Shown piece after piece: positions 4,203 through 53,048 of a stretch of DNA of 64,000 nt (positions are counted from its first letter, which is position 1; the number at the start of each line of letters is the position of its first letter). A model generated the notes under the pieces. The model made no database searches, had not been told where the DNA came from, and saw only the letters and a program-made list of their open reading frames with translations. Source of the stretch: Staphylococcus phage VB_SavM_JYL01; the sequence record MH159197.1; one strand, given 5' to 3'. Position numbers and translations under genes: made by a program.

Positions 4203-5459
4203 ATGGCAAGAGCAAAAAAAGGTAAAGAAGTAGATTTAACAGATTTAAATACAATTGATTTAGGTAAAGAATTAGGATTAACATTATTATCAGATACAAA
4301 TAGAGCAGATATTAAGAATGTTATACCTACAATGGTACCTCAGTATGACTATATTTTAGGTGGAGGTATACCGTTAGGTAGATTAACAGAGGTTTATGGT
4401 TTAACTGGTAGTGGTAAATCAACATTTGCAGTTCATTTGTCTAGGATTGCAACACAATTAGGTGTTATTACCATTTGGATTGATATTGAAGGAACAGCAG
4501 ACAATAATCGTATGGAACAACTTGGAGTAGATGTTTCAAAATTATTCTCTATTCAATCAGGAGAAGGTAGACTTAAAAATACAGTAGAATTATCTGTAGA
4601 GGCTGTAGGTAAAGAATTAGAGTACTGGATTGACACATTTAATGAAAAGATACCTGGAGTACCTATTGTGTTTATTTGGGACTCACTAGGAGCTACACGA
4701 ACTCAGAAAGAGATTGACGGCGGTATTGATGAGAAACAAATGGGTCTTAAAGCATCAGCTACTCAAAAAGTAATTAATGCAGTAACACCTAAATTAAATG
4801 ATACAAATACAGGGTTAATTGTTATTAATCAAGCACGTGACGATATGAATGCAGGTATGTATGGTGACCCTATTAAGTCTACAGGTGGTAGAGCATTTGA
4901 ACATAGTGCTAGTTTACGTATTAAGGTTCATAAAGCATCACAATTAAAACAAAAAAGTGAATTAACTGGTAAAGATGAATATCATGGTCATATCATGCGT
5001 ATTGAAACTAAGAAATCTAAATTATCGAGACCGGGACAAAAAGCAGAAGCAGACTTACTATCTGATTATATGGTAGGTAAAGAAGATGACCCTATATTAT
5101 TAAATGGTATTGACTTAGAACATACTGTATATAAAGAAGCAGTTGAAAGAGGTTTAATTACTAAAGGTGCATGGAGAAACTATGTTACATTGAATGGTGA
5201 AGAGATTAAACTTAGAGATGCTGAATGGGTTCCTGTATTAAAAGATAATAGAGAGTTATATTTAGAATTATTCAGTAGAGTATATGGAGAGCATTTCCCT
5301 AACGGTTACTCACCATTGCTTAATAATAAAGTAATTGTAACTCAACTAGAAGAGTATCAAGCTCTTGAAAATTACTATAAAGAATGGGCTACAGATAATA
5401 AACAAAAGGAACAAGAGGAAGAACTAAAAGGAGAATCTCAAGAAAAGGATTCTGAATAA
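4203..5459 (+). CDS. RecA/UvsX-like recombinase (repair recombinase)
   Basis: Walker A GLTGSGKST and Walker B IVFIWDSLGA are present in a RecA-like core. The SD is ctaggagg. Confidence 0.9.
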   Translation: MARAKKGKEVDLTDLNTIDLGKELGLTLLSDTNRADIKNVIPTMVPQYDYILGGGIPLGRLTEVYGLTGSGKSTFAVHLSRIATQLGVITIWIDIEGTADNNRMEQLGVDVSKLFSIQSGEGRLKNTVELSVEAVGKELEYWIDTFNEKIPGVPIVFIWDSLGATRTQKEIDGGIDEKQMGLKASATQKVINAVTPKLNDTNTGLIVINQARDDMNAGMYGDPIKSTGGRAFEHSASLRIKVHKASQLKQKSELTGKDEYHGHIMRIETKKSKLSRPGQKAEADLLSDYMVGKEDDPILLNGIDLEHTVYKEAVERGLITKGAWRNYVTLNGEEIKLRDAEWVPVLKDNRELYLELFSRVYGEHFPNGYSPLLNNKVIVTQLEEYQALENYYKEWATDNKQKEQEEELKGESQEKDSE

Positions 5460-8359: not shown

Positions 8360-9115
8360 ATGGGTGTTATAATAAATTCTAACCATATTCAGTCAGATAC
8401 TTTATATGAGTACGATAGTTTTTTTGATATTGAGAAAGTAGATACGTTTGAAGAAGGATTACTATCAATACAGGATGAACCAACTGTTTTAGCAGGATTT
8501 ATCTATGATGATATTACATTTAATAAGGTTATTAACTCTAATTCAAATATTGATAACAATATTAAGAATAATGATATTTATTATGTTTCTGATATAGGGT
8601 TACTTCCGGATACTTTTATCACTGTTGATTCTAATAAAAAATACTATTCATTATTACAGCAGATAGTTGAGTTAAGTAAAGACCCTTTCCCTAAATGGGT
8701 AGAAACGGATGCAAAAGATTTAACTAGGTATTATAACTTTCAAGATTTTGAAGATGTATTCGATTTAAATAGTTTTTATAAAAAAGAAGTTGACATGGTA
8801 AGAGAAAAGTGCTATAATAATGGTAATGTATATTTATTATATGAAGTCTTGCCTGATTATAAATTACCTCTAGCTTATAGTTTACTTTCAAATAAAGAGC
8901 ATGGTATTGTTATTATCGGTTCACAGACACGTTCTAATAATGATATACTGACTTTTTACGTTAAAGGTATGGATGCTAAGGCAATAGCTAGCATGTTTAA
9001 TGTAGAACATGATTATGATTCTAATATTTTTCATACATTCGTAAATAGTCACATTAATATTTTAGGAAATCAAATAACTAAGTTTATAAGAGAGAAAGGA
9101 AGCAGTTATGAGTAA
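8360..9115 (+). CDS. hypothetical protein
   Basis: 251-aa ORF in the co-directional array. Confidence 0.6.
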   Translation: MGVIINSNHIQSDTLYEYDSFFDIEKVDTFEEGLLSIQDEPTVLAGFIYDDITFNKVINSNSNIDNNIKNNDIYYVSDIGLLPDTFITVDSNKKYYSLLQQIVELSKDPFPKWVETDAKDLTRYYNFQDFEDVFDLNSFYKKEVDMVREKCYNNGNVYLLYEVLPDYKLPLAYSLLSNKEHGIVIIGSQTRSNNDILTFYVKGMDAKAIASMFNVEHDYDSNIFHTFVNSHINILGNQITKFIREKGSSYE

Positions 9116-34996: not shown

Positions 34997-35282
34997 GACT
35001 AATAGGAGTATGTTGACTAATAAGGAAGATATATAGGAGAGGAGTTAATCAAGTAAAACCAATAAAATCAATTAAAACCAAGTAAAGTAACTAAACAATA
35101 CCTAGAGCCTGGGAAAACTTTTACCTCTCCCACTCAGCCTATTACTTACTACCGACTTCCCTAACTATGTATTCTATAGTTATAATATTCATTTATTATA
35201 CAATACTTAAACTATAGTATTGTAACCTTAATCTATACTGAAGCGGTATTAATCTATTGTTATTATATAATAATCTTATATA

Positions 35283-35414
35283 ATGGTGGTATAATCTAGG
35301 TTATTACATTAGAATCATTCTAATCTAGAATTTTAATCTTTAGACCCTAGGAAAAGTGGTACTAAAATATAGAACCCTATAGGTATGGGATTCTTATTTT
35401 TAAAATTACTAAAA
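35283..35414 (+). ncRNA. candidate small RNA (extended -10 TGGTATAAT to a terminator-like hairpin)
   Basis: An extended -10 aatggtggtataat precedes about 110 nt with no ORF. This ends in agaaccctataggtatgggattct plus tattttt. Confidence 0.25.
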
Positions 35415-35534
35415 AGTATTAGGTTTTCCCTAGGGTAAAGTTTTAATGTACCTAAAATCGTAAGTAGCTCCTTATCATTTAGGTCTGTTTAATTGAGAAT
35501 ATTAGAAGATATCCGCTTCAATTACAATTAAAGG

Positions 35535-35665
35535 TTGACAACTATGAAGCGGTATGTTATACTTAGTATTGTAGGGGTGGTTCCCTACAGACCTAGACTA
35601 TGGTCGTGATTTTGGTTTGCATATTAGTGTCATTCATAACCCCTACTGGAATAGGGGTTATTTTT
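35535..35665 (+). ncRNA. candidate small RNA (promoter TTGACA-17-TATACT to a rho-independent terminator)
   Basis: ttgacaactatgaagcggtatgttatact precedes about 95 nt with no ORF. It holds an internal hairpin tgtaggg-gtggtt-ccctaca and ends in aaccccta-ctggaa-taggggtt plus ttttt. Confidence 0.3.
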
Positions 35666-35674
35666 ATTTAAGTA

Positions 35675-35703
35675 TTGACATACTCTAAGTAGTATGGTAT
35701 GAT
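35675..35703 (+). promoter_or_regulatory. sigma-A-type promoter TTGACA-17-TATGAT
   Basis: ttgacatactctaagtagtatggtatgat. Confidence 0.5.
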
Positions 35704-35726
35704 TAGTATATAAGGAGATGAATAAT

Positions 35727-36023
35727 ATGATTGATATATACTTAGGGGAAAACTATAATACTGATTACTTATCTACTATTATGAATATTATAAAGACTTC
35801 CGCTTCAAGAGAGTTAAGTTATGGGTTTAATAATAAAGAAGCGGATGTAAATATAGAGGATATGAAGTATGAAGGTGATGTTATGCATGTATATGGTACG
35901 ATGTCTATGGATTATCCAGGCTGTATTATTATATGTATTACTAGTGAAGAGACTAAGGTTATATATGGTGGTAACTTTCTAACAGGTACAGGTCTTAGTC
36001 AAGAAGTTAGAGAAAAATTCTAG
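35727..36023 (+). CDS. hypothetical protein, paralog family A member (start MIDIYLGENYN)
   Basis: An SD aaggag sits 9 nt before ATG 35727. The N-terminus matches the 37000, 37290 and 37577 proteins. Confidence 0.65.
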   Translation: MIDIYLGENYNTDYLSTIMNIIKTSASRELSYGFNNKEADVNIEDMKYEGDVMHVYGTMSMDYPGCIIICITSEETKVIYGGNFLTGTGLSQEVREKF

Positions 36024-36034
36024 GGGGAGTTATT

Positions 36035-36205
36035 ATGATTATACCATTAATTATATTCATGATGACCTTCGGTACATTTGCATTCAGTTATGTTGCACAT
36101 GATGCATACAAAGTAGATGAAAAAGGTATCATGTATGCTATGGTAGTTGGTATTGTAGTTATAAATGGGATTGGTTTAGAAATGATAATTGTAGAATGTT
36201 TATAA
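36035..36205 (+). CDS. 56-aa membrane protein (below the track cutoff)
   Basis: An SD tagggggag sits 6 nt before the ATG. The protein has two TM helices. Confidence 0.45.
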   Translation: MIIPLIIFMMTFGTFAFSYVAHDAYKVDEKGIMYAMVVGIVVINGIGLEMIIVECL

Positions 36206-36218
36206 AGGAGGTAGTAAA

Positions 36219-36404
36219 ATGATAGGTCAAATTATACTATTAGCTATTGTTAGTATAGTTACAATAGGTTGTGTAGGATTATTTTTCTATGAGACGTTCA
36301 AGAGTATTAAGTATGATGCTAATGATAAAATCTTTATGATTACTGGGAGTATATTAATGTTAGTTATTATCGTTAGTGGTGCATTAGCTATACTTGGCAT
36401 TTAG
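36219..36404 (+). CDS. small membrane protein
   Basis: 61-aa ORF with two TM helices and an SD aaaggaggt. Confidence 0.5.
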   Translation: MIGQIILLAIVSIVTIGCVGLFFYETFKSIKYDANDKIFMITGSILMLVIIVSGALAILGI

Positions 36405-36672
36405 AGCTCATTTAAGAAGCGGTTAAGTAGTTCATGATAAATTGGTCTAGAAATATATGACCGCTTCTCTATGGAAGGCTGAGAGGGTTTAGAATTGAAA
36501 GGAGAGATATAATGGCTATATTTTTTAGTATTTTATTATTGATTAACATATACTTAATATACTATGAATGTACTTCAGTTACGTTTGATTGGTGTGCACT
36601 GCTTATTTACGTATGCTCATTATGCTCTTGTATTTATTTAATAGTATATTTTGTATAAAAGGAGGAGATATA

Positions 36673-36987
36673 ATGCAAGCAACTATATACTGTGCTAATA
36701 GGTATAGTAAAAATACATTAAAGAGTCTTTTAGAAAAATTAGAAGCGGAGAATAGAAACTTAACATATAGTACTGACATATCAGATATGGAGGAAGTGGA
36801 TGTTATTGTACAACACACTGACTTATCTTTTGCAGAGTTAATGGATTCTTGTGATAGAGTAAGTAAAGGGTCTGACCGCTTCCAAGTATTTGTAGGTAAT
36901 CACGCAGGGTATTATATAAACGGTGATTTATATATTAACGAAGTAGGTAAGTTTATTGTACCTAGGAAAACGAATATGATGATGTAA
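36673..36987 (+). CDS. hypothetical protein, divergent paralog family A member (start MQATIYCANRY)
   Basis: An SD aaaggaggag sits 6 nt before ATG 36673. The shared pattern is IYxxxxYxxxxLKxLLExL...R.LTY. Confidence 0.55.
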   Translation: MQATIYCANRYSKNTLKSLLEKLEAENRNLTYSTDISDMEEVDVIVQHTDLSFAELMDSCDRVSKGSDRFQVFVGNHAGYYINGDLYINEVGKFIVPRKTNMMM

Positions 36988-36999
36988 GGAGGAAATATA

Positions 37000-37290
37000 A
37001 TGATTCATATATTTGTAAAAGAGGATTATAATAAAGAAACATTAAGGAGTTTACTTGAATATATTAATGATACTGTAGGTAGGGAATTAACTTATGGTAT
37101 TAATACAGACTATGATAAGGATGTAGTGATTGAAACCGATGACCCTATAGATGAGGAGAATACGATTGATTTATCAAATCTTCCTCACTTTAAAGATGAC
37201 TTATGTATTCTTATAGAAGAATTATACTGTAAGGCATTTGTTAATGGGGAACCTATTATTATACGTAAGTATGTAGAGGGGATGTTATAA
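37000..37290 (+). CDS. hypothetical protein, paralog family A
   Basis: The protein is MIHIFVKEDYNKETLRSLLEYINDTVGRELTYGIN... The SD is gtaaggagg. Confidence 0.65.
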   Translation: MIHIFVKEDYNKETLRSLLEYINDTVGRELTYGINTDYDKDVVIETDDPIDEENTIDLSNLPHFKDDLCILIEELYCKAFVNGEPIIIRKYVEGML

Positions 37291-37577
37291 TGATTATAAT
37301 ATTTTTAACTGAAAAATATGATGCCAAGGCTTTAAAGAAAGTATTAGAACATATTGATAATTGTAGTAGCAGAGGTCTTAGCTATTTAATGGGAAAAGGA
37401 GAAGCGGATGTATGTATAGAGAAGAATGTATTCAGAGAAAGAGATGATGTAAGGATTAACTCAAACATTATTGATGAAGGTAAACTTTGTATACTCATAA
37501 ATAAAAATGGTTTAGAATGTAGTTACTATAGAGGTGTATCATGTAATATTGGTGCCTTTGTAAAGGAGAGATTATAA
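37290..37577 (+). CDS. hypothetical protein, paralog family A
   Basis: The protein is MIIIFLTEKYDAKALKKVLEHIDNCSSRGLSY... The SD is gagggg. Confidence 0.65.
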   Translation: MIIIFLTEKYDAKALKKVLEHIDNCSSRGLSYLMGKGEADVCIEKNVFRERDDVRINSNIIDEGKLCILINKNGLECSYYRGVSCNIGAFVKERL

Positions 37578-37870
37578 TGATAGAAATATATCTCAGTGAA
37601 AACTATGATAGGGATTTACTCAAAGCAGAATTAAAATGGATTAAAGAGACCGCTTCAAGAGAACTAACTTATGATGTTAATAGAAGCCCAGGATTAGATG
37701 TACATATTAGTCCTTTTAGATATACCAAGGATGAGGTTGAAGAAATGAGCTTACATCCTCAGTTTGAAGATGATGTATGTGTATTTATAGCTGAAACATG
37801 GATACATGAGTATCGTAATGGTAAATCAATAGGTGTAGATAGTATGGAAGAATATGTAAAGGAGATGTAA
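37577..37870 (+). CDS. hypothetical protein, paralog family A
   Basis: The protein is MIEIYLSENYDRDLLKAELKWIKETASRELTY... The SD is aaaggagag. Confidence 0.65.
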   Translation: MIEIYLSENYDRDLLKAELKWIKETASRELTYDVNRSPGLDVHISPFRYTKDEVEEMSLHPQFEDDVCVFIAETWIHEYRNGKSIGVDSMEEYVKEM

Positions 37871-37873
37871 TTA

Positions 37874-38122
37874 ATGGTAGAAACTTATTATACAGTATAT
37901 CATAAGAATAGTATGAAAACTATTAAGGATTACTTAAGTAGAAGTGATTTAATTGACTTCTTATATAAGACTTGGCATAAGGATATAAGTAATATATACC
38001 CAACAGATTATACTACGTATGAAACAAAATTCTGTATAGACATAGATGTAGTTAGATTAATTGAAGCGGTTAATGAAGAAGGTGTATTACTTATTAATGA
38101 AGGTAATATTGTAGAGTGGTAG
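37874..38122 (+). CDS. hypothetical protein, paralog family B
   Basis: The protein contains YTVYHKNSMKTIKDYLSRSD... The SD is aaggagatg. Confidence 0.6.
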   Translation: MVETYYTVYHKNSMKTIKDYLSRSDLIDFLYKTWHKDISNIYPTDYTTYETKFCIDIDVVRLIEAVNEEGVLLINEGNIVEW

Positions 38123-38134
38123 GAGGAGATAAAT

Positions 38135-38374
38135 ATGAGTCAGTTTTTCACGTATACAGTGTATCATACAGAAACAGCTAAAGTAGTAGCTAAGAATTTG
38201 TTTGATGCATCATTGGTGCACCTTATTAACAAGATGATAGAGAAAGATATAGTTAAGGATATTAATTTAGAATATTACATGAATACACGTGGTGTAGTTA
38301 TAGATATGAGTAGACTACTGGATGATATAGAATCACAGGGTGTATTTCTATTCAAACGTAAGCTACATGGATAA
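38135..38374 (+). CDS. hypothetical protein, paralog family B
   Basis: The protein contains TYTVYHTETAKVVAKNL...LLDDIESQGVFLF. The SD is taggaggag. Confidence 0.6.
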   Translation: MSQFFTYTVYHTETAKVVAKNLFDASLVHLINKMIEKDIVKDINLEYYMNTRGVVIDMSRLLDDIESQGVFLFKRKLHG

Positions 38375-38485
38375 TAGGTTAGACCCTAAAAAGTTTGAGA
38401 TACAATAGGATGCTTAGGATAATAGGATAAAAATAACTTAGGATGCTTAGGATGAAATACGATACGATAGGGAGGTTAAGTTAAG

Positions 38486-38725
38486 ATGCAAGAGTTAATA
38501 ACTTATATAATTTACCATAAAGAATCAGGTAAAGTAGTAGCACAGGATTTAAGTGAATTAGAAACTATTGAACTTATATACAAAATGATAGAAGAGGGAT
38601 TAGTAAAAGATATAGAATTATCTAACTACCGTCTTTTTAGTGGGAATATAGATATACTTAACTTATTAGTAGACATACGTAAACAAGGTATATTTGATTT
38701 TGAACATACTTGGCACACAAGATAA
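38486..38725 (+). CDS. hypothetical protein, paralog family B
   Basis: The protein contains TYIIYHKESGKVVAQDL...LLVDIRKQGIFDF. The SD is atagggagg. Confidence 0.6.
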   Translation: MQELITYIIYHKESGKVVAQDLSELETIELIYKMIEEGLVKDIELSNYRLFSGNIDILNLLVDIRKQGIFDFEHTWHTR

Positions 38726-38736
38726 GGAGGGATAGG

Positions 38737-39081
38737 ATGATAGTTATATATTCAGATGAGTCTAGGGATTACTTAAGAGATGAGTTCTTACCTTGGCTTA
38801 ATGATAGAGATAGATATTTAAAATATTATAAGAATGAGTTACCTGAAGATATAGACTCTTCTTATGTTGTATCAGTTGTATACTGTAGGGATATGGAAGG
38901 TCTTATGAATAGGAAAGATATTCTTATTGGTAATAGTTATAGAGAGCCTGTAGCTGTATTAGGTGTTCCTGAATTTTTTGGTAACTATTCTAATTATTAC
39001 TATTATAAAGGAGAGCATATAAGTAAGCATGACCTAGGAGAGATAATTAGGTTAAAGGCTTGGCAACGTAATTTTGACTAA
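38737..39081 (+). CDS. hypothetical protein (start MIVIYSDE)
   Basis: An SD aaggaggg sits 7 nt before ATG 38737. Confidence 0.55.
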   Translation: MIVIYSDESRDYLRDEFLPWLNDRDRYLKYYKNELPEDIDSSYVVSVVYCRDMEGLMNRKDILIGNSYREPVAVLGVPEFFGNYSNYYYYKGEHISKHDLGEIIRLKAWQRNFD

Positions 39082-39165
39082 GTAGCTCTCTCTAATTTCA
39101 CTAAGTAGCTCCCTAGGAATTGCCTAAGTAGCTCGGTGTGATTTTACCCTAAGTAGCTCCCTCTG
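39077..39165 (+). repeat. four direct repeats of CTAAGTAGCTC with 22-25 bp periodicity (iteron-like)
   Basis: gaCTAAGTAGCTCtctc, caCTAAGTAGCTCccta, gcCTAAGTAGCTCggtg and ccCTAAGTAGCTCcctc. Confidence 0.7.
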
Positions 39166-39196
39166 TTTTCTATTAGTTTATTTTAACCGCTTCACG

Positions 39197-39212
39197 TGTC
39201 TATATATAGACA
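39197..39212. promoter_or_regulatory. 16-bp perfect palindrome TGTCTATATATAGACA (operator-like)
   Basis: Read directly from the sequence. It lies in ORF-free DNA between the iteron-like repeats and -10-like boxes. Confidence 0.5.
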
Positions 39213-39565
39213 ATCGGAATAATAGCAGACCGCAAAAAGAAATACACTAGGATATTATTCCCAGTGTATTGTATAATTTTTTTATATAATATTTGTAGAA
39301 GCGGTTGGGGTTTGTCCCTTGCCTTACTACACTTAATATATTACAGTATAGTTATTCAGAAGTCAATACTTTTGAGTAACTTTTTTTTAAATTCTTTTTT
39401 CTTCTATATAATAGTAGTTTTTAGCCCTAAAAAAAGTTTTTTAAAAGAATTTACATTTTCTTATTGACTTATTAATCATATGATAGTAATATAAAGGTAC
39501 AGCAAGAGAACAGCAACAAGGTATTAGAATTATATAAAAAAATTATTTAATTGGAGATGATTTAA

Positions 39566-39874
39566 ATGGATGTAAAAGAAATTGCAGACACTATAATGGA
39601 GTTGTGGCAAATGGACGGATACAGATGTACAGAACCGCCATTATATGAAAGCACATTAAACCACACACGCACATACACGGCTTTAATTGTAAGCATTAAA
39701 GGTAATTACGACACTGTTCAAATGTTCCGTAAAACGCCTATAATGAGCATGAGAGGGCAAAGCCAACCGGCTAGCATGTTAGTAAATGTAATTGATGACG
39801 TGATTATAATCGTATATGAAAATACGGTTTACGGGGTACAGAATAAAGAAATAAAATTTATTGAAGAAATTTAA
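39566..39874 (+). CDS. hypothetical protein
   Basis: 102-aa ORF with an SD aattggagatg. Confidence 0.55.
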   Translation: MDVKEIADTIMELWQMDGYRCTEPPLYESTLNHTRTYTALIVSIKGNYDTVQMFRKTPIMSMRGQSQPASMLVNVIDDVIIIVYENTVYGVQNKEIKFIEEI

Positions 39875-39972
39875 AAATAGGGGTTGCAATACCCCTTAAG
39901 ATGTAGTAATATAATAGATGTAAGGGATAGCAACACACCTTAAAAAACTTTTTAAAAAAGTTAAAGAAAAGT

Positions 39973-40001
39973 GTTGACACCTTACAAGATACATGTTAAT
40001 A
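39973..40001 (+). promoter_or_regulatory. LTR early-type promoter TTGACA-N15-cATGTTAATATTAgt (extended -10 TGTTAATAT) with an upstream A6/T6 UP-like element
   Basis: ttaaaaaactttttaaaaaagttaaagaaaagtgttgacaccttacaagatacatgttaatattag. Confidence 0.5.
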
Positions 40002-40079
40002 TTAGTATAGAAGTTAAGACAAGCCACATAGCAAATAACGAAATTAAATAAAAAAATTATAGAATAGGATTTGATTATT

Positions 40080-40367
40080 ATGACAAACAAAAATTACTTA
40101 TACGAAGAAACTCACACAGTACAAGGGCAAGATATTACGGCTTTCAGAATTCCAAATGACACAAACGGCAACCCACGTTATGTAGTGCATTTCATGGATT
40201 TAGACATTAAACTAGCAGACTATGACAACATCAATAAGCTATACGGATTTAAAAAATATACTGCTAAATGGTTTGGCGGTGGTGTAGTATTCCAAAGCTA
40301 TAATATTGAAGATACATTAAATTACGCACTATCTAATGTTAAAGAAATAGAAGCGGTTAAGAATTAA
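40080..40367 (+). CDS. hypothetical protein (start MTNKNYLY)
   Basis: The conserved leader aggatttgattattATG is present. Confidence 0.55.
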   Translation: MTNKNYLYEETHTVQGQDITAFRIPNDTNGNPRYVVHFMDLDIKLADYDNINKLYGFKKYTAKWFGGGVVFQSYNIEDTLNYALSNVKEIEAVKN

Positions 40368-40376
40368 AACCGCTTC
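40350..40376. other. inverted repeat GAAGCGGTT-(9)-AACCGCTTC overlapping the gene stop
   Basis: gaagcggttaagaattaaaaccgcttc. Confidence 0.6.
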
Positions 40377-40416
40377 TGAATTAAATAAAAAAATTATATA
40401 AAAAGGGTATGATATT

Positions 40417-40608
40417 ATGAAATTTAAAATAGAAAAAAATAACAGTGATATAAAAACTTTATGGAATTTAGCTAAAAATGGATATATGAGTTATCAAACT
40501 GTACACAATATATTTAAAAATGAATCAGATGAATTTATTATATTTAACAGTAAACAAACTTATAATAAATTTATGGAATTAAGATATAATAGAAGTGCAA
40601 TTCAATAG
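40417..40608 (+). CDS. hypothetical protein
   Basis: 63-aa ORF with an SD aaaagggtatg. Confidence 0.5.
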   Translation: MKFKIEKNNSDIKTLWNLAKNGYMSYQTVHNIFKNESDEFIIFNSKQTYNKFMELRYNRSAIQ

Positions 40609-40619
40609 TATAAAAAAGT

Positions 40620-40665
40620 TATATAATTCCCTAGGATTAAATTCCTAGGGATTTTTATTTGTTTT
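40620..40665 (+). terminator. terminator-like hairpin
   Basis: ccctaggatt-aaa-ttcctaggg followed by atttttattt. Confidence 0.5.
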
Positions 40666-40699
40666 AATTTATATAAAAAAATTATTTAATAAATAAATT

Positions 40700-41100
40700 A
40701 GTGTAAAATTGACTGTTGACAAGAATATATTTTTTATGGTATAATGAAGTGAAGACCTTTTTTAGTATAAAAAAATTATTATATAAAAAAATTATATAAA
40801 AAAGTTTAGTTCCGGTCTTTCTCCCCACCTTGTCATATTTATAGTGGAAGGGTTAGGCGGGTTACCACTGTTTTACTTTCTATATATAGTATACTATGAA
40901 TAATGGTAATTGTCAACACCTTTCAGAAACTTTTTTTACTTTATTTTATTATTATATAAAAAAATTATACATATTTTAGGGCTCCACTTCCATTATATAA
41001 TAATTCGGTCTTAATGTCAATACTTTTATTCAAAAAAGTTTTTTAAATTAGTTTCAACAAATCTATTGACTTATGTTTATTTCTATAGTAATATATAGTT
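40700..41100. repeat. intergenic repeat element, copy A (about 390 bp; homologous to 42890..43150, with a diverged core at 45520..45600)
   Basis: The shared order is as follows. A + promoter ttgaca..tataatgaagtgaa comes first, followed by ttttttagtataaaaa and attatataaaaaaattatataaa. A GC-rich core ggtcttt..cccc follows, then a leftward TTGACA-17-TATACT promoter. It closes with aaaaaagtttt..aaatctattgactta..taatatatag. Confidence 0.65.
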
Positions 41101-41124
41101 ATACCAACAAGGGAGGCAATACAA

Positions 41125-41283
41125 ATGCTAAAATTTAAATGGAAAAACAAAACAATCAAATCAACTCAAAAAACGGATAACATTCTTTTACTTCTTATAG
41201 GTGGTTTAGTTGCAACAGTCACACCTAAACTTGTAAACTGGTTTTTACTACTACAAGATAATATAAATATTTTTTTAAGATAA
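41125..41283 (+). CDS. 52-aa membrane protein (below the track cutoff)
   Basis: An SD caagggagg sits 9 nt before the ATG. The protein has one TM helix. Confidence 0.45.
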   Translation: MLKFKWKNKTIKSTQKTDNILLLLIGGLVATVTPKLVNWFLLLQDNINIFLR

Positions 41284-41331
41284 CTATTGACAACTTAGAA
41301 ACAACGTGTTAATATTAAGATACAAGGTAAG

Positions 41332-41351
41332 GGAAGCGGTTGACCGCTTCC
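41332..41351. promoter_or_regulatory. palindrome GGAAGCGGT-tg-ACCGCTTCC directly downstream of promoter 41287 (operator-like)
   Basis: ttgacaacttagaaacaacgtgttaatattaagatacaaggtaagggaagcggttgaccgcttccgacc. Confidence 0.5.
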
Positions 41352-41449
41352 GACCTAAATAAAAAAAGTTTAAAAAAACTATTGACAGTCACTTGAAACC
41401 ATGATATTATTAAGATAACAAAAAACAAACAGAAAAGGAATTGATTATA

Positions 41450-41773
41450 ATGAAATTTATCAAAACTATCGAAAACTTATTAGAAAAAGCAGAAAACAAA
41501 GGGCAAGCAATTTTAAACGGTCGTTACTTTGATGGGTATAGCAAAGGTGAGCTTGAGGAAAAATATGCAATTGAAATTGATGGCAACAAATTGATTATGC
41601 GTCACTGGGGTACACAAACAATTGAGATTGATTTAAGCATAAATGAGATTGTTTCATATTACGGTGAAAGCAATTCAGACCGTGACAGTTTAAACACACT
41701 TGTATATTGCTTAGGAATTGCGCCAAACTTTAGATACTTACCAAGCAAAAACTTATTCATTTACGAAAATTAA
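41450..41773 (+). CDS. hypothetical protein (start MKFIKTIENL)
   Basis: The conserved leader aaaaggaattgattataATG is present. Confidence 0.55.
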   Translation: MKFIKTIENLLEKAENKGQAILNGRYFDGYSKGELEEKYAIEIDGNKLIMRHWGTQTIEIDLSINEIVSYYGESNSDRDSLNTLVYCLGIAPNFRYLPSKNLFIYEN

Positions 41774-41782
41774 TTAAATAAA

Positions 41783-41815
41783 GGGCTTGACTTCCAAGCC
41801 CTACCATGTTATTAT
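41783..41815 (+). promoter_or_regulatory. hairpin with TTGACT in its loop followed by an extended -10 (hairpin-embedded -35 cassette)
   Basis: agggcttg-acttc-caagccct, then accatgttattattaa. Confidence 0.5.
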
Positions 41816-41872
41816 TAAATTGTAAGGTAATCAAGCACAACGACAAAATAAACTGAAAAGGGATTGATGAAA

Positions 41873-42379
41873 ATGACAAATAATAAGGATTTTAATAAAA
41901 ATTTCTTAAGACTACTAAAAGTTAAAAATGTAAATGACAAAAGGGTGCAAGGTTTCATAAACAAGCATGACATTAAACTTAAAGACAAAGAAGAAAGCTC
42001 ACAAGGATATGTTAACGTATTATATAAGGGTTATGACTTTGTAATATCAAAAGACTATGCAGGTCAAACGGCGTTATATGTTAACATGCGTAATTTAGGG
42101 GTTGACTACAAACATTTTAAACATTTAGATTTTAATAATATTGTTCAAGCGTTAGACAGAAAAAATAATAATCGTGTTGAATGTAAGGAAACAAAAACAC
42201 AACAATATAAAGAATTTAAACACCGTCAAAAGACAGAAAAAGAAATGTTAACATACTATGAAAAGGATATCGAAAAGCTAAAAGAAGAACTGGAACGAAC
42301 ACAAAAAATCTACAATGATAAAATAAAGAAAATAGAAAATTACGATAAAAAAATATCTAGACTAAAAAAATCAAAATAA
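41873..42379 (+). CDS. hypothetical basic/coiled-coil protein (start MTNNKDF)
   Basis: The conserved leader aaagggattgatgaaaATG is present. Confidence 0.55.
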   Translation: MTNNKDFNKNFLRLLKVKNVNDKRVQGFINKHDIKLKDKEESSQGYVNVLYKGYDFVISKDYAGQTALYVNMRNLGVDYKHFKHLDFNNIVQALDRKNNNRVECKETKTQQYKEFKHRQKTEKEMLTYYEKDIEKLKEELERTQKIYNDKIKKIENYDKKISRLKKSK

Positions 42380-42448
42380 GGCTTGACACTTTCAAGCCCT
42401 CATGATATACTTAGTATAACAAATCAAAAAGAAAAGGAATTGATGAAA

Positions 42449-42829
42449 ATGTTCAAATTACAAAATAAAGTGGAAATTATCGTACCTAAGGAAGATAACA
42501 ACGGCGTTGAGATTGCAGACAAACGTATTAAAGAATATGTAAATAGCATCACAATGGAAGCGGGTGGTTGTACTATTACAGAAATCAAAGGGCAATGGTA
42601 CTCAGAAGATGAAAAACGTATAATGGAAGATAACAACTTAAATCTTGAGTGGTACTACATGCAAGACAGTGCCAAATTCATGACAGTTGAATTAAAAGGC
42701 ATTGTAAGACGTTTAATTGAAGTTTACGGACAAGAAGCAATAAGCATTAAAGTTAACGGCACATTGTACATTGTAGACCAATCAGACATTGAAGAATTAC
42801 ACACAACATTATTAAATATCATGAAATAA
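42449..42829 (+). CDS. hypothetical protein (start MFKLQNKVEI)
   Basis: The conserved leader aaaaggaattgatgaaaATG follows the hairpin-promoter aaggcttgacactttcaagccct. Confidence 0.55.
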   Translation: MFKLQNKVEIIVPKEDNNGVEIADKRIKEYVNSITMEAGGCTITEIKGQWYSEDEKRIMEDNNLNLEWYYMQDSAKFMTVELKGIVRRLIEVYGQEAISIKVNGTLYIVDQSDIEELHTTLLNIMK

Positions 42830-42889
42830 AAAATTTATATAAACCGCTTCGGATTAAATTCTTGAAGTGGTTATTTTCTTTTAAATTAG

Positions 42890-43150
42890 TGCTTGACAAA
42901 TGTACTAAAAAATGAGATAATGAAGTGAACGCATTTTTTAGTATAAAAATAATATTATATAAAAAAATTATATAAATGAATTTATTTCAGGTCTTTCCCG
43001 TAACCCCTCTTGGGCTACCCTGGTATCTCTACAATTATTATTATACTATAGGTCATGAAGATTGTCAATAACTTTCTTCAAAATAATTTATTTAAAAAAG
43101 TTTCATAAATCTATTGACTTACTATTAATTATGGTGTAATATATAGATAT
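42890..43150. repeat. intergenic repeat element, copy B
   Basis: Aligns with copy A. It contains the leftward promoter TTGACA-17-TATAAT (RC of attattatactataggtcatgaagattgtcaata) and the GC core ggtctttcccgtaacccctcttgggctaccctggta. Confidence 0.65.
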
Positions 43151-43271
43151 AAGGTTAAGGAAGCGGAACACCTAAAAAAGAAATTAAAAAAACTTTTAAA
43201 AAGGTGTTGACAAACTTCAAACCACATGTTAATATTAAGATAACAAATAAAACAAAAAGGAATTGATAATT

Positions 43272-43493
43272 ATGAACAGATTAGAAATAATAAAAGACAC
43301 GGCAATGGAATACATCATTATGATGGATAACGGAGTTATGGACGGACAATTGACACAAGAAGAATACAACGAAGCGGTTAGCTTTGAAAAGGTTTACGAT
43401 TACACTTTATCAGAAGCAAATCAAGAATGTAAATTCTTAGGCGGTAAAATTTTAACTTTCCTAGTACATGAAGCAATTGAAGAATACGCATAA
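43272..43493 (+). CDS. hypothetical acidic protein (start MNRLEIIK)
   Basis: The conserved leader aaaaggaattgataattATG is present. Confidence 0.5.
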   Translation: MNRLEIIKDTAMEYIIMMDNGVMDGQLTQEEYNEAVSFEKVYDYTLSEANQECKFLGGKILTFLVHEAIEEYA

Positions 43494-43574
43494 AAAAACT
43501 TAATCAAAGGGGTTGACATTCAACCCCTTACCATGTTAATATTAATATATACCAAATGAGAGGAATTGATAATT

Positions 43575-43712
43575 ATGAGATACGAAATCGTAACATTAGT
43601 TAATGGAGAATTATTCATGTTTGCAACATTTAAGAAAGCAGAGGCAGAAAATAAATATCAAGAATGGTGTGACTTGTACGGTCAAGAAAATGTAAGCATG
43701 GAAAAAAATTAA
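43575..43712 (+). CDS. 45-aa hypothetical protein (below the track cutoff)
   Basis: The leader agaggaattgataattATG follows the hairpin-promoter aaggggttgacattcaacccctt. Confidence 0.4.
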   Translation: MRYEIVTLVNGELFMFATFKKAEAENKYQEWCDLYGQENVSMEKN

Positions 43713-43782
43713 AATAAGGGGTTGACACTTAACCCCTTAGATGTTATTATTAATATATACTAAAGAAAAGGAAATGATAAAA

Positions 43783-44019
43783 ATGAAATTATTAAACCAA
43801 GAAAATGAAATCGTAAAAGAAATGGTAACTTTTAGAGACGTAAAACAAGCCCTAATTTGGGAATACATCGACCACATAGATAATAACATCCTAAACAATG
43901 AAATTCATGACACAGAAGCGGTTGTGGTTACTTCTGAGACTCTACAATCAATCAAATTTGCAGACACTATGGAAGACCTGCAGGAATACATTGCAGATAT
44001 CAATTGGAAATTAGTTTAA
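43783..44019 (+). CDS. hypothetical protein (start MKLLNQENEIV)
   Basis: The leader aaaaggaaatgataaaaATG follows the hairpin-promoter aaggggttgacacttaacccctt. Confidence 0.5.
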   Translation: MKLLNQENEIVKEMVTFRDVKQALIWEYIDHIDNNILNNEIHDTEAVVVTSETLQSIKFADTMEDLQEYIADINWKLV

Positions 44020-44113
44020 AAAAAGTTTTAAATAACTGTTGACACCTTAGCAAATAGATGGTAATATAAGAGTATAAAGAAAAACAAAAAAAAACGAAAA
44101 GGATTTGATTATA

Positions 44114-44458
44114 ATGACAAACTTACTAAACACTATTGAGATGGATTTTGAATACTATGGAGTACAATTTGAAAATGGATGGAAACACAATGCCTACACT
44201 GTAGAGCTAACACATAATGGAGTTACCGAAGAATTTGACTGGAAACAAGGAATAGGAATTCACGAAGAGCCTGAACTAGAAAGCATCTTAGAAAGCTTAA
44301 TGCTAGATATTCATTACTATGAAGAAGATATTTATTCAATGTATGAGGACGAAGAACAGGCAGAAAAAATAATTGAGAAGTTAGAAGAACAAACTAAAAA
44401 GGTAAATAAACTATTTACAGATGAGGAACAAGCAGACCTAGTTGAATACTTTGAATAG
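44114..44458 (+). CDS. hypothetical acidic protein (start MTNLLNTIEM)
   Basis: The leader aaaaggatttgattataATG follows promoter 44039 ttgacaccttagcaaatagatggtaatat. Confidence 0.55.
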   Translation: MTNLLNTIEMDFEYYGVQFENGWKHNAYTVELTHNGVTEEFDWKQGIGIHEEPELESILESLMLDIHYYEEDIYSMYEDEEQAEKIIEKLEEQTKKVNKLFTDEEQADLVEYFE

Positions 44459-44483
44459 TATCAGGAAACACACAGAGACCCAC

Positions 44484-44505
44484 AGAAGCGGATTAATCCG
44501 CTTCT
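44484..44505. other. 22-bp perfect palindrome AGAAGCGGATTAATCCGCTTCT
   Basis: Read directly from the sequence. It sits immediately after the stop of 44114..44458. Confidence 0.6.
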
Positions 44506-44532
44506 AATATAATTAATCAGGAGATGTTAAAG

Positions 44533-44697
44533 ATGACAATTAAAGAGGTTATAAGCCAATTAGAATTAGTAGAAAATAAAGAACTTGAATTGTACGTATG
44601 CGACAAGGAAAATAATAACATTTCAATTAATGATATTATTTTGTTCGATAGTGAAGCAGAGCACACAGAAAACAACCCACTAGGGATTAATTATTAG
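44533..44697 (+). CDS. 54-aa hypothetical protein (below the track cutoff)
   Basis: The leader aatcaggagatgttaaagATG duplicates the leader of the 44710 gene. Confidence 0.45.
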   Translation: MTIKEVISQLELVENKELELYVCDKENNNISINDIILFDSEAEHTENNPLGINY

Positions 44698-44709
44698 GAG
44701 ATGTTGAAC

Positions 44710-44883
44710 ATGAACACAAGAAGGGTAAACAAAGCGTTAAACGAAGCAGTTAGATTATTAGACAAGCAAATAGCAGACACACAGAAAACAATGCAGGAGT
44801 TAAATAAACAACTAGAACAACAGATAAAAGCTAAGCAGGAGCTAATGACATTAGTTGATGCTATGACTGGTGATGATGAGTAA
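44710..44883 (+). CDS. hypothetical coiled-coil protein (start MNTRRVNK)
   Basis: The leader attaggagatgttgaacATG is present. Confidence 0.5.
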   Translation: MNTRRVNKALNEAVRLLDKQIADTQKTMQELNKQLEQQIKAKQELMTLVDAMTGDDE

Positions 44884-45152
44884 TGAACGTTAGAGAGGTT
44901 CATGATGTCGTTAAGAGTGCAAAGAGCAAACTCCTGCAGGAGCAGAATAATATTAATAATGTAATGATATATGAATACATCACAGAAGAGCTTCACAGAC
45001 GCACACAGAGAAGCGGAACAATACAGATGAACAATAACACCGCTTCATATAGTAATGGCTCATATGGTAGCTTAGAAGAGCTTAGAGAAGCTTATGACCT
45101 CTCTTCTCTATCTACTGATGAGATTAAAGAACTACTTGAAACATTTGTTTAA
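44883..45152 (+). CDS. hypothetical protein
   Basis: 89-aa ORF whose start overlaps the upstream stop. Confidence 0.5.
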   Translation: MNVREVHDVVKSAKSKLLQEQNNINNVMIYEYITEELHRRTQRSGTIQMNNNTASYSNGSYGSLEELREAYDLSSLSTDEIKELLETFV

Positions 45153-45236
45153 ATTATTTTATCAAAACGCTTTACAATCTTTTAGTTTGTATGATATAAT
45201 GAACTTAACAAATTAAAAGAAAAGGAAATGATGAAC

Positions 45237-45458
45237 ATGAGAGACTTACAAGAGAGAAAAAGAGAATTAAAAACATTACTATTTAACTTAGCCATAGAGA
45301 AGAATAGAGCAACGGATGAGCAGTTAAGAGAAGTATTAGAACAATCACATCAAGAAGTGATGTATCAATTAAATAAAGTTAGAAAAGAAATTGAAATTTT
45401 AGTTGAAGAAAAAGAAAGAGAATTTTGGAATGATTTCGATTTTAATGGATTAGATTAA
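45237..45458 (+). CDS. hypothetical protein (start MRDLQERK)
   Basis: Promoter TTTACA-18-TGaTATAAT is followed by the leader aaaaggaaatgatgaacATG. Confidence 0.5.
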   Translation: MRDLQERKRELKTLLFNLAIEKNRATDEQLREVLEQSHQEVMYQLNKVRKEIEILVEEKEREFWNDFDFNGLD

Positions 45459-45486
45459 GAGGGAATAAAATCCCTCTTTTATTTTT
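45459..45486 (+). terminator. rho-independent terminator
   Basis: agaggga-ataaaa-tccctct followed by tttatttttat. Confidence 0.65.
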
Positions 45487-45519
45487 ATCCTATTATATAA
45501 TTTTTTTATATTATACGGG

Positions 45520-45600
45520 GGCAGGGGTAAAATGCCACTCAATGGGGGTGGGTCTATATACCCCTACGGTCTACCCAGGTACTTATTTTTTGGGGAAAAT
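45520..45600. repeat. GC-rich structured element, third diverged copy of the repeat core
   Basis: gggtctatatacccctacggtctacccaggtac aligns with copy B ggtctttcccgtaacccctcttgggctaccctggta. It is followed by ttattttttgggg. Confidence 0.4.
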
Positions 45601-45620
45601 TATGAAAATAAATATTTAAA

Positions 45621-45742
45621 AGTCAACACATAAAATATAGAAAGTAAGTCAACATCCCTTATAATAAGTCAACATTATAACCTTACTTGGTAAGTCAACA
45701 ATTTATAGTACAAATATAAAGCCTCTAAATATAAAGTCAACA
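45621..45742. repeat. five direct repeats of (T/A)AAGTCAACA at irregular spacing (26/20/26/42 bp)
   Basis: Copies lie at 45621, 45647, 45667, 45693 and 45735. The reverse complement TGTTGACTT matches the left-side copy atgttgactaataagg at 35007-35024. Confidence 0.65.
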
Positions 45743-45783
45743 TATATAAAATAAGAAGAGAGGTATATCCTCTCCTCTCTTAA

Positions 45784-46074
45784 CTAGATAAGTACGATTC
45801 TATTATTTAGTTCCTGTTCTATTCTATTTAAATGCTCCCAAACCTCAATCCAGTTTACTCTTGAATCATCATAATAAAGGTGGAAATCTTGAGGGTTTTC
45901 TAAATATGCTTCTAGTTCATCATAGTATAGAACATCAAAAGCTGTGTCATCAAGACCTATTTGAATCTTTAGTATATCTCTATATCCTAATTGTTTATTA
46001 CCGCAATAAGCTGTATCTTCTAACCGCTTCTCTAGTTTATTAAATAGTGTTTGTATACCTTGTAGTTCATTCAT
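45784..46074 (-). CDS. hypothetical protein
   Basis: 96-aa ORF with an SD aggagg (RC) 9 nt before the start. It contains one GAAGCGG motif. Confidence 0.6.
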   Translation of the reverse strand: MNELQGIQTLFNKLEKRLEDTAYCGNKQLGYRDILKIQIGLDDTAFDVLYYDELEAYLENPQDFHLYYDDSRVNWIEVWEHLNRIEQELNNRIVLI

Positions 46075-52458: not shown

Positions 52459-52502
52459 TTAAATACCCCTTTTTTACTTTATCTATTTATAATATATCAA
52501 AA

Positions 52503-52532
52503 TAAAAAACACCTATTAATGAAAATAGGTGT
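52503..52532 (-). terminator. rho-independent terminator
   Basis: aaaaaa-acacctat-taatgaaa-ataggtgt. On the - strand it is followed by a T-run. Confidence 0.65.
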
Positions 52533-52639
52533 CCGACAGAGCTCCCGTACTTAGATTACGGTTAATAATATTTTACGACAATTATATGAGACCCTCTGTC
52601 GTTAAAACACTCGTCACTGCGTTATTCCACAAGATATTT

Positions 52640-52976: not shown

Positions 52977-53048
52977 TGGACTCTGTAGGATTCGAACCTA
53001 CAGTCAAACCGTTATGAGCGGTTGGCTTTACCTTTAAGCTAAGAGTCC
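52977..53048 (-). tRNA. tRNA-Met (anticodon CAU), elongator-type (or a lysidine tRNA-Ile2; cannot be distinguished)
   Basis: The RC reads GGACTCT-TA-GCTT-AAAGGTA-AAGC-C-AACCG-CTCATAA-CGGTT-TGACT-GTAGG-TTCGAAT-CCTAC-AGAGTCC-A. All four stems are perfect, G1-C72 is paired, and CCA is not encoded. Confidence 0.8.

Follow-up and report, generated by a model that had tools for sequence, protein, structure and literature searches.

Two GC-rich islands in the long terminal repeat of a Staphylococcus Kayvirus are candidate genes for small folded RNAs, and a third is the right end of the repeat

Phage therapy against Staphylococcus aureus relies mainly on Kayviruses, whose long terminal repeats (LTRs) carry takeover genes and influence host range. 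Lobocka and co-workers annotated the LTR boundary in phages A3R, A5W, and Staph1N. For phage 812, structural work showed that the right genome end is the first to leave the capsid and that the terminal 85 bp, which include four G tracts, adopt a B/A hybrid form within the neck/tail channel (PMC12886913). For phage K, Finstrlova et al. (2022, PMC9241854) reported the computer-predicted minus-strand small non-coding RNAs (sncRNAs) snc002 and snc004, which were described without a promoter, structure, covariation, or family relationship. Here, we analyzed 64,000 nucleotides of Staphylococcus phage VB_SavM_JYL01 (MH159197.1; this whole stretch is referred to as the window), in which an initial annotation had marked three GC-rich islands, named A, B, and C below. 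snc002 and snc004 lie in the same intergenic regions as A and C (K 8370-8665). The three islands are two different things, A and B being homologous modules and C a separate element. We put at about 70% the probability that A and B are genes for small folded leftward RNAs and that C marks the physical end of the LTR on its right side. No account of the structure of A or B was found in the transcriptome papers on Kayviruses, which report two long non-coding RNAs elsewhere in addition to the predicted sncRNAs of phage K.

The genome in the window is that of a phage K-type Staphylococcus Kayvirus (Herelleviridae, Twortvirinae). A segment of 5.8 kb that includes the islands matched 262 phage records with a top identity of 93 to 95%, and islands A, B, and C were 100% identical to phage vB_SauM-SDQ. 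The LTR spans window positions 35112-45575 (10,464 bp), with the left boundary placed by homology to nucleotide 1 of phage K and the right boundary at 45575, and it contains all three islands together with the early "tre" host-takeover genes. A scan in 60-nt windows gave GC fractions of 0.43 at 40800-40859, 0.33 at 42960-43019, and 0.47 at 45540-45599, with flanks of 0.10 to 0.28, in agreement with the initial annotation that three islands stand out above background. The further claim, that the three islands share a common core, held for A-B and B-C in part and failed for A-C. The left flanks of A and B were 86% identical over 86 nt (40736-40821 versus 42912-42997), and their cores have only GGTCTTTC in common (local alignment versus shuffles, P = 0.026). 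B and C have a common stretch of 24 nt (ACCCCT..GG.CTACCC.GGTA; score of 20 versus a shuffle mean of 11.9, P = 0.0055), and the pattern derived from it had only these two occurrences in the window. The likeness between A and C was no better than chance (local alignment versus shuffles, P = 0.71). Within B, CTACC forms the 3' arm of a helix, and at this place the relatives of B have CAACC, CTGGT, CTGCT, CATCT, or CAACT; because this arm varies, the resemblance between B and C is not a conserved trait of the B family.

Modules A and B have the same layout (Table 1), with a rightward promoter, GAAGTGA, a T run, the AT motif, G(G/C)TCTTTCYC, and the core, followed by a facing leftward promoter. 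Consensus leftward promoters beside cores A and B had been proposed initially; both were found, each opposed by a rightward consensus promoter, and the facing promoters of the two modules match the sigma-70/sigma-A consensus at 11 to 12 of 12 positions. From 40746, the rightward promoter of module A is followed by a conserved GAAGTGAAGACC and six T residues, and the same promoter and GAAGTGA start were seen in modules of Kayvirus, Baoshanvirus, and Sepunavirus. Modules with the same layout were present in four genera, namely Kayvirus, Baoshanvirus (phiSA_BS1, PSU4), Sepunavirus (BE08), and Sciuriunavirus (PG-2021_76, SscM-1), as well as in the Mammaliicoccus phage MSShimriz1, whose record has no genus assignment. 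The leftward promoter reads TTGAC(A/C/T)-17-TATA(A/C)T in the homologues and was kept in all that were examined, and the folded domain begins 0 to 13 nt past the predicted leftward start. In both RNA types, an invariant purine stretch without pairing, GRGAAAGASC, comes after the helices and leads into an A/U-rich tail; the minus strand past cores A and B is indeed U/A-rich, as expected from the earlier remark that a leftward RNA would enter T-rich sequence. This tail is the exact complement of the first ~60 to 80 nt of the rightward transcript, with the convergent promoter 105 to 130 bp away. A leftward RNA would necessarily be antisense to the convergent transcript starting at GAAGTGA.

The case for folded RNAs was built on two alignments. 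The B-type alignment held 13 distinct sequences, all of which paired throughout helix H1, a 7-bp stem that RNAalifold predicted unaided. Double changes were found at four of the seven pairs (GC/CG; UA/CG/AU; UA/AU; CG/UA), and the G·U pair within the stem was present in 13/13. A second hairpin, H2, lies at the predicted 5' end; it is reduced to a remnant in the window, while most relatives have a full 5-bp form (GUAGU..ACUAC), and it was 93% paired, with one double change. The covariation score for the whole B-type structure was 0.222, compared to 0.054 in shuffles, with none of 500 shuffles reaching 0.222.

For the A type, 12 sequences with five distinct stem variants were aligned. The arms of its helix S1 are the H1 arms pulled apart, with 26 nt between them in A of the window. 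S1 was paired in 12/12 sequences and was also predicted by RNAalifold on its own; four of its pairs were double-changed, and its G·U was invariant. The arms of the five variants, written for the plus strand, were CCCACC/GGCGGG, GTTACC/GGCAAC, GGAACC/GGCTCC, CCTACA/TGCAGG, and CCAACC/GGCTGG. The second helix, S2 (AGYGS/SCRCT), was likewise paired in all 12, with two pairs double-changed (UA/CG and GC/CG). Interleaved in this way, S1 and S2 are predicted from the pairing pattern to give an H-type pseudoknot with loops of 3, 8, and 13 nt. All 132 of 132 cells of S1 and S2 were paired, compared to 38 to 52% in controls in which the partner columns were slid and pairing recounted, and the covariation score was 0.485 versus 0.118 in shuffles (0/500). 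Taking the A- and B-type helices together, 97 to 100% of cells were paired, versus 18 to 59% after sliding, and the double-changed pairs numbered five in the B type and six in the A type. The initial annotation had tied its small RNAs to compensatory base changes among homologues, and such changes are present for both A and B.

The strand of the RNA was indicated by a single internal pair, which in 25/25 homologues (13 B-type and 12 A-type) is G·U on the minus strand and A·C on the plus strand. In the B copy of Stab20, the outer G-C pair of H1 also becomes G·U on the minus strand, where the plus strand would have A·C. As the invariant G·U is a standard pair on the minus strand only, it points to a leftward RNA. 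The three loop lengths also seem easier to accommodate in a minus-strand pseudoknot, a stereochemical judgment that was not computed. These observations bear on an alternative in which the helices work in the rightward transcript, with its GAAGTGA start, AT motif, C-rich anti-Shine-Dalgarno-like UCUUUCCC, and hairpins, or serve as rightward terminators, while the leftward promoter modulates. The greater strength of the rightward promoter, which has a TG-extended consensus, the sense (A7) orientation of the AT motif, as in three tre-gene leaders, and the U-rich run after S2 of the A type on the plus strand would all suit this alternative. We nevertheless consider it quite unlikely, given the A·C pair in 25/25 homologues and the second case in Stab20, the 3-nt third loop that would make a plus-strand pseudoknot less workable (by the same uncomputed judgment), and the retention in four genera of a leftward promoter at a set distance from the helices.

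A covariance model, R1, was built from the B-type sequences. It scored 86 bits on B and 30 bits on A, where H1 was aligned onto S1 and the nucleotides between were treated as an insertion. R1 had 16 matches in Kayvirus, Baoshanvirus, Sepunavirus, and Sciuriunavirus loci, at one to four per LTR; the Silviavirus SA11 locus gave none, and neither did the C core (45516-45590) at E ≤ 10. A and B have in common a helix H1/S1 of the form NNN-G-C-C(C) with (G)G-G-U-NNN, including the invariant minus-strand G·U, which is absent from C, and they also share a leftward promoter at a fixed short distance and the 3' tail GRGAAAGASC; C has neither this tail nor a leftward promoter inside the LTR. Judged from these sequence features, A and B appear to be members of a new, Twortvirinae-restricted family of structured RNAs that has not been described previously. 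A search for the B-type motif in 185,579 bacterial and archaeal species genomes (one per species) returned one chance match only, and the motif was found in two Twortvirinae contigs in IMG/VR and in one real match, on an AT-rich contig, among 37 metagenome matches. These scans point to the absence of a host homologue and to little further diversity. With Rfam 15 at the gathering score, only tRNA-Met and DUF3800-I were found in the window, both away from the cores, and an E-value scan (E ≤ 10) of 39000-46000, including CRISPR-repeat and riboswitch pseudoknot families, gave nothing on A, B, or C.

Could the cores instead be neutral debris, i.e., leaders of lost leftward genes or scars of homing endonucleases, with an apparent covariation that a small number of recombining alleles would produce? 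Recombination is concentrated in LTRs, phages K, T-SE-G1, SA3, and SAP1 have an HNH endonuclease gene directly beside the A-type core, and element D (Table 1) shows a promoter, a hairpin, and a terminator outlasting the gene between them. However, eleven distinct stem variants from four genera keep perfect pairing and the same G·U, and loops and tail are invariant while the stems change, where neutral remnants would gather uncompensated changes. We therefore regard this explanation as very unlikely. Protein-coding roles were also considered and rejected. The indels in A and B are not multiples of three, there is no ribosome-binding site, and no open reading frame (ORF) is conserved. A type I toxin-antitoxin system or small peptide was rejected as well: the only ORFs have 27 to 34 amino acids (e.g., 42976-43071) and no ribosome-binding site, and the relatives have no ATG and carry frame-breaking indels.

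Copy C was of a different kind. The right end of the LTR is window position 45575, and the same nucleotide is the end in A3R, K, Stab20, Sa83 (read coverage), and fGlntSau01 (PhageTerm). The end falls inside g(g/t)ctaccc-(t/a)ggta, which the initial annotation had taken as part of the common core. In phage K, the boundary repeat has 12 bp (TAAGTACCTG^GG on the left and CC^CAGGTACTTA on the right, where the caret marks the boundary), of which the window keeps only CCTG^GG and CC^CAGG. The deposited sequence of Silviavirus LSA2308 stops at GGGGCTACCT^AAGGAAC, the C-type end region reads CCTACCTCAGGTWC in Sepunavirus and GCTACCTGAGGTTC in Sciuriunavirus, and a terminus motif, CTACC(T)NAGGWWC, is kept across genera. 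A 15-mer of the C core was found in IMG/VR in SA11 only, other matches being due to chance. For seven C-type sequences from five genera, RNAalifold gave no conserved pair on either strand, and the leftward promoter-like sites near C are weaker (TTGACT-16-CATAAT at 45626-45599 and TTGACT-16-TATATT at 45740-45713). C is the LTR boundary element annotated by Lobocka and co-workers and has the same four tracts as the phage 812 terminus (PMC12886913); A and B differ from this element in having paired helices, which C lacks. The mapped end, the lack of pairing, and the lack of an R1 match together identify C as a known DNA element and not a copy of the RNA gene. The earlier proposal of short leftward RNAs from the cores was thus borne out for A and B, by promoter, compensatory changes, and G·U, and given up for C, which is a terminus with no conserved pairing. 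Setting C apart avoids a false lead, and the terminus motif helps to call LTR ends in new genomes.

The nature of C raises the question of whether all three islands are end-like modules acting at the DNA level, with C as the current end, A and B as former or alternative ends or as ejection-pause sites (where an AT tract beside a GC tract would go into A-form in the neck channel), and the promoters as incidental. C is the terminus, each of A, B, and C has an AT motif on its left and a GC island on its right, the likeness of B and C is above chance, the Silviavirus end GGGGCTACCT^ resembles GGGCTACCC of B, and pauses in ejection, encoded in the sequence at AT/GC junctions, have been proposed for phage 812 (PMC12886913). 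On the other hand, A and B lie inside the repeat, 4.7 and 2.5 kb from its right end, and no annotated LTR among five genomes ends there; the CTACC arm of B varies in relatives, the B-built model R1 misses C, and neither a DNA-form nor a cut-site model predicts compensatory pairing changes and an invariant G·U. We consider this reading of A and B unlikely.

Two side observations concern the LTR boundaries. Both boundaries are CCTG^GG when read towards the repeat, and in phage K the left boundary repeat sits in the last partial copy of a 35-bp tandem repeat that ends the unit genome. Just beyond the right end, the five -35-like repeats (plus strand AAGTCAACA, 45620-45742) are also found at the LTR end in Silviavirus, Sepunavirus, Sciuriunavirus, and Baoshanvirus, and an old phage 812 record labels them "possible recombination sites". 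Promoters, or repeats that bind a protein in connection with end formation, are two possible readings.

Published transcriptomes give a mixed picture of A and B. In phage K, from which copy B is absent, snc002 lies directly 3' of the A-type core on the minus strand, and stranded RNA-seq gave at least 5-fold minus-strand coverage at snc002 (5022-5067; PMC9241854). snc004 was also reported at 5-fold coverage or more (PMC9241854); it corresponds to the whole intergenic region spanning the LTR end. Several points weigh against A and B as RNA genes. The snc002 interval is a nocoRNAc prediction and covers the A/U-rich part only (PMC9241854). In the supplement of the 515A1 transcriptome, both module promoters are sequence predictions (scores of 1.0 and 0.809) that carry no RNA-seq-supported number, and the 515A1 and rpoC phage K papers contain no independent start-site support for these promoters. 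There is no terminator-like site between the A and B cores and the opposing promoter and no canonical terminator past the cores, the nearest hairpins to their left (40628-40651 and ~42846-42873) scoring as terminators for rightward reading only. Single-sequence folding was unremarkable for A (z = -0.3) and B (z = -2.1); for four islands on both strands, z ranged from -0.3 to -3.05, B and C had no common hairpin, and such values are uninformative alone. The helices were first spotted by eye in sequences that were later used for counting, and these sequences are related, so the shuffle controls overstate significance; the independent stem variants number ~6 for the B type and ~5 for the A type, about eleven in total. 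The pseudoknot form is suggested by the pairing pattern, and a hairpin in bottom-strand single-stranded DNA would also tolerate G·T. Finally, pairing of the tail in trans with the AT motif of tre-gene leaders was unspecific, with duplexes of -14 to -23 kcal/mol for genes that have the motif versus up to -26 kcal/mol for others, and such pairing of the U/A tail is kept as a weak possibility only. Long-range pairing of GAAGACC at the rightward start with GGTCTT in the core was rejected, being found in A of the window and in T-SE-G1 and absent in B of the window, PSU6, and PG76.

Table 1. Coordinates in the window of the features of modules A and B, the LTR end, and further LTR elements (the caret marks the LTR boundary).
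Feature	Position	Strand	Basis or remark
Module A rightward promoter, TTGACA-18-TATAAT with TG extension	40716-40745	+	Consensus match 12/12
Module A AT motif, TATTATATAAAAAAATTATATAA	40777-40799	+	Alignment with module B; motif count in window
RNA A single-stranded tail, GAGAAAGACC (plus strand GGTCTTTCTC)	40814-40823	-	GAAAGA core invariant in 11/12 sequences
RNA A helix S1, RNA CCCGCC (40856-40861) with GGUGGG (40824-40829), 6 bp, one G·U	40824-40861	-	
RNA A helix S2, RNA AGUGG (40865-40869) with CCACU (40843-40847), interleaved with S1	40843-40869	-	
Module A leftward promoter, TTGACA-17-TATACT, predicted start ~40881	40888-40916	-	Consensus 11/12; kept in A-type homologues
Module B rightward promoter, TTGACA-17-GATAAT with TG extension, then GAAGTGAACGCA and T6	42893-42921	+	
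Module B AT motif	42953-42975	+	Alignment with module A; motif count in window
RNA B single-stranded tail, GGGAAAGACC	42990-42999	-	GAAAGA invariant in B-type alignment
RNA B helix H1, RNA GUAGCCC (43012-43018) with GGGUUAC (43000-43006), loop AAGAG, 4th pair G·U	43000-43018	-	
RNA B remnant of 5' hairpin H2, GUA-GAGA-UAC	43023-43032	-	B-type alignment
Module B leftward promoter, TTGACA-17-TATAAT, predicted start ~43033	43040-43068	-	Consensus 12/12; kept in relatives
Copy C, last 60 bp of the LTR; G tracts G5-CA-G4-N16-G5-T-G3	45516-45575		Ends GGTCTACC^CAGGTAC
Boundary inverted repeat, right half CC^CAGG	45574-45579		Partner CCTG^GG at 35108-35113, left LTR boundary
Five TGTTGACTT (-35-like) repeats and weak leftward promoters, just beyond the LTR	45599-45742	-	Kept beside LTR end in five genera
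TATATAAAAAAATTATA copies	39531, 40045, 40382, 40670, 40780, 40953, 42956	+	
TATATAAAAAAATTATA copies	39272, 45496	-	
Element D: leftward promoter TTGACT-17-TAATAT, long 5' hairpin, AT motif, intrinsic terminator (39270-39241), no gene between	39235-39375	-	

Returning to A and B as genes for leftward RNAs, we considered what such RNAs might do. The host polymerase would make the RNA in the first minutes of infection, from both copies of the LTR and together with the takeover genes. Its folded head would be a recognition module for a host or phage protein that the RNA titrates or guides; a role in protein recognition is suggested by the contrast between the freely co-varying outer pairs and the invariant loops and G·U. 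The opposing, stronger promoter would set a limit on RNA levels, as polymerases collide and RNA duplexes form. This functional part, a protein-recognition head under the control of an opposing promoter, is put forward tentatively, as a possibility well short of even odds. The RNA gene, with its covariation and its pseudoknot variant, is missing from genome annotations and transcriptome papers, and a product of ~100 nt would mostly be lost from standard RNA-seq libraries. It bears on how these phages seize the cell and on why changes in the LTR shift host range.

The same layout recalls transcript-primed replication origins, of which T4 oriF/oriG, the T7 primary origin, and ColE1 RNAII are examples. 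The modules would then prime replication by a G-rich RNA hybrid in the AT-rich stretch, with the convergent transcript counter-regulating like RNAI. A strong promoter is indeed followed by ~60 nt of structured G-rich RNA (GGUGGGGAGAAAG) and then by 50 to 60 bp at ~10% GC, the sense/antisense pair recalls RNAI/RNAII, and there are several copies per LTR. However, positive supercoils from the convergent promoters would hinder unwinding of the AT stretch, no literature link was found between Kayvirus origins and the LTR, and the module is absent from Silviavirus. Such an origin seems improbable to us; an antiterminator role is also conceivable.

Other features of the LTR were noted in passing. 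In the four phages with an HNH gene beside the A-type core, this homing endonuclease gene (minus strand; phage K 5150-5658) lies immediately upstream of the A-type RNA gene, and its terminator provides the -35 box (TTGACC) of the A-type RNA promoter; the window has no HNH gene. The abutting position fits a conserved, selectable target sequence. The AT motif TATATAAAAAAATTATA has nine copies in the window versus 1.0 expected, and each core has one on its left. The tre genes starting at 39566, 40080, and 40417 each have a copy 7 nt upstream of their ribosome-binding site, for each of the nine copies there is a predicted transcript in which it stands in the A7 orientation, and many copies occur in the LTRs of other Twortvirinae genera; TATATAAAAAAATTATA may be a shared leader element. 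Element D has a related layout and is the promoter-terminator shell that remains after loss of gp009, a minus-strand gene in that gap in phage K, and its 5' leader, AAGUGUAGUAA, is identical to the leader of B-type RNAs in other phages. Within the stem-loops of the terminator hairpins at 41782-41802, 42378-42400, 43503-43530, and 43715-43739 lies the -35 box (TTGACA/TTGACT) of the early promoter that follows (e.g., GGGGTTGACATTCAACCCC), a compact terminator-promoter fusion that recurs along the LTR. Four head-to-tail units of 23 to 25 nt with CTAAGTAGCTC lie at 39074-39172, in a non-coding part of the LTR. The Rfam DUF3800-I match (52498-52629, minus strand; 46.4 bits versus a gathering score of 44.2) lies directly downstream of the tRNA-Met gene (52977-53048, minus strand), and its region is the lncRNA1/lnc001 of the Kayvirus RNA-seq papers, which is very abundant and was compared there only with GOLLD and ROOL.

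How do modules A and B compare with known RNA systems? The put RNA of phage HK022 is a cis-acting antiterminator with two stem-loops that acts without translation. Like put, the A and B helices lie directly downstream of a strong early promoter; unlike put, they are followed by no leftward genes, and the convergent promoter stands 105 to 130 bp ahead.

The pseudo-ToxI pseudoknot antitoxin mimics and the RNA anti-CRISPRs (Racr) are phage RNA decoys against defense systems. These are small, structured, non-coding phage RNAs, some of them pseudoknots, which come from early regions and can be multicopy, as is the case here; the decoys are highly expressed. By this analogy, the A and B RNAs might be protein-binding decoys that neutralize a staphylococcal defense or RNA-metabolism factor, a speculative and rather doubtful proposal. 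The hairpin and pseudoknot variants and the varying outer pairs would then reflect an arms race or different targets, and a decoy role, if true, would be the first RNA-based takeover or anti-defense function in Herelleviridae. The differences are that the cores of A and B match no Rfam CRISPR-repeat family, that the B-type motif had no true match among the 185,579 species genomes, and that the A and B genes are not tandem repeats. The staphylococcal type III-A CRISPR repeat may have the 9-mer ACCCACCCC in common with the minus strand of C and a hairpin-plus-tail layout loosely like B.

A parallel in arrangement is offered by cis-antisense RNA pairs, such as lambda OOP, P22 sar, ColE1 RNAI/RNAII, and S. 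aureus SprA1/SprA1AS. As in these pairs, convergent promoters would give short, fully complementary RNAs, one of them with a structured 5' domain. Unlike them, the A and B partners overlap no protein-coding gene and have no toxin ORF, both promoters of each module are near consensus, and the structured partner comes in two architectures, a hairpin in B and a predicted pseudoknot in A.

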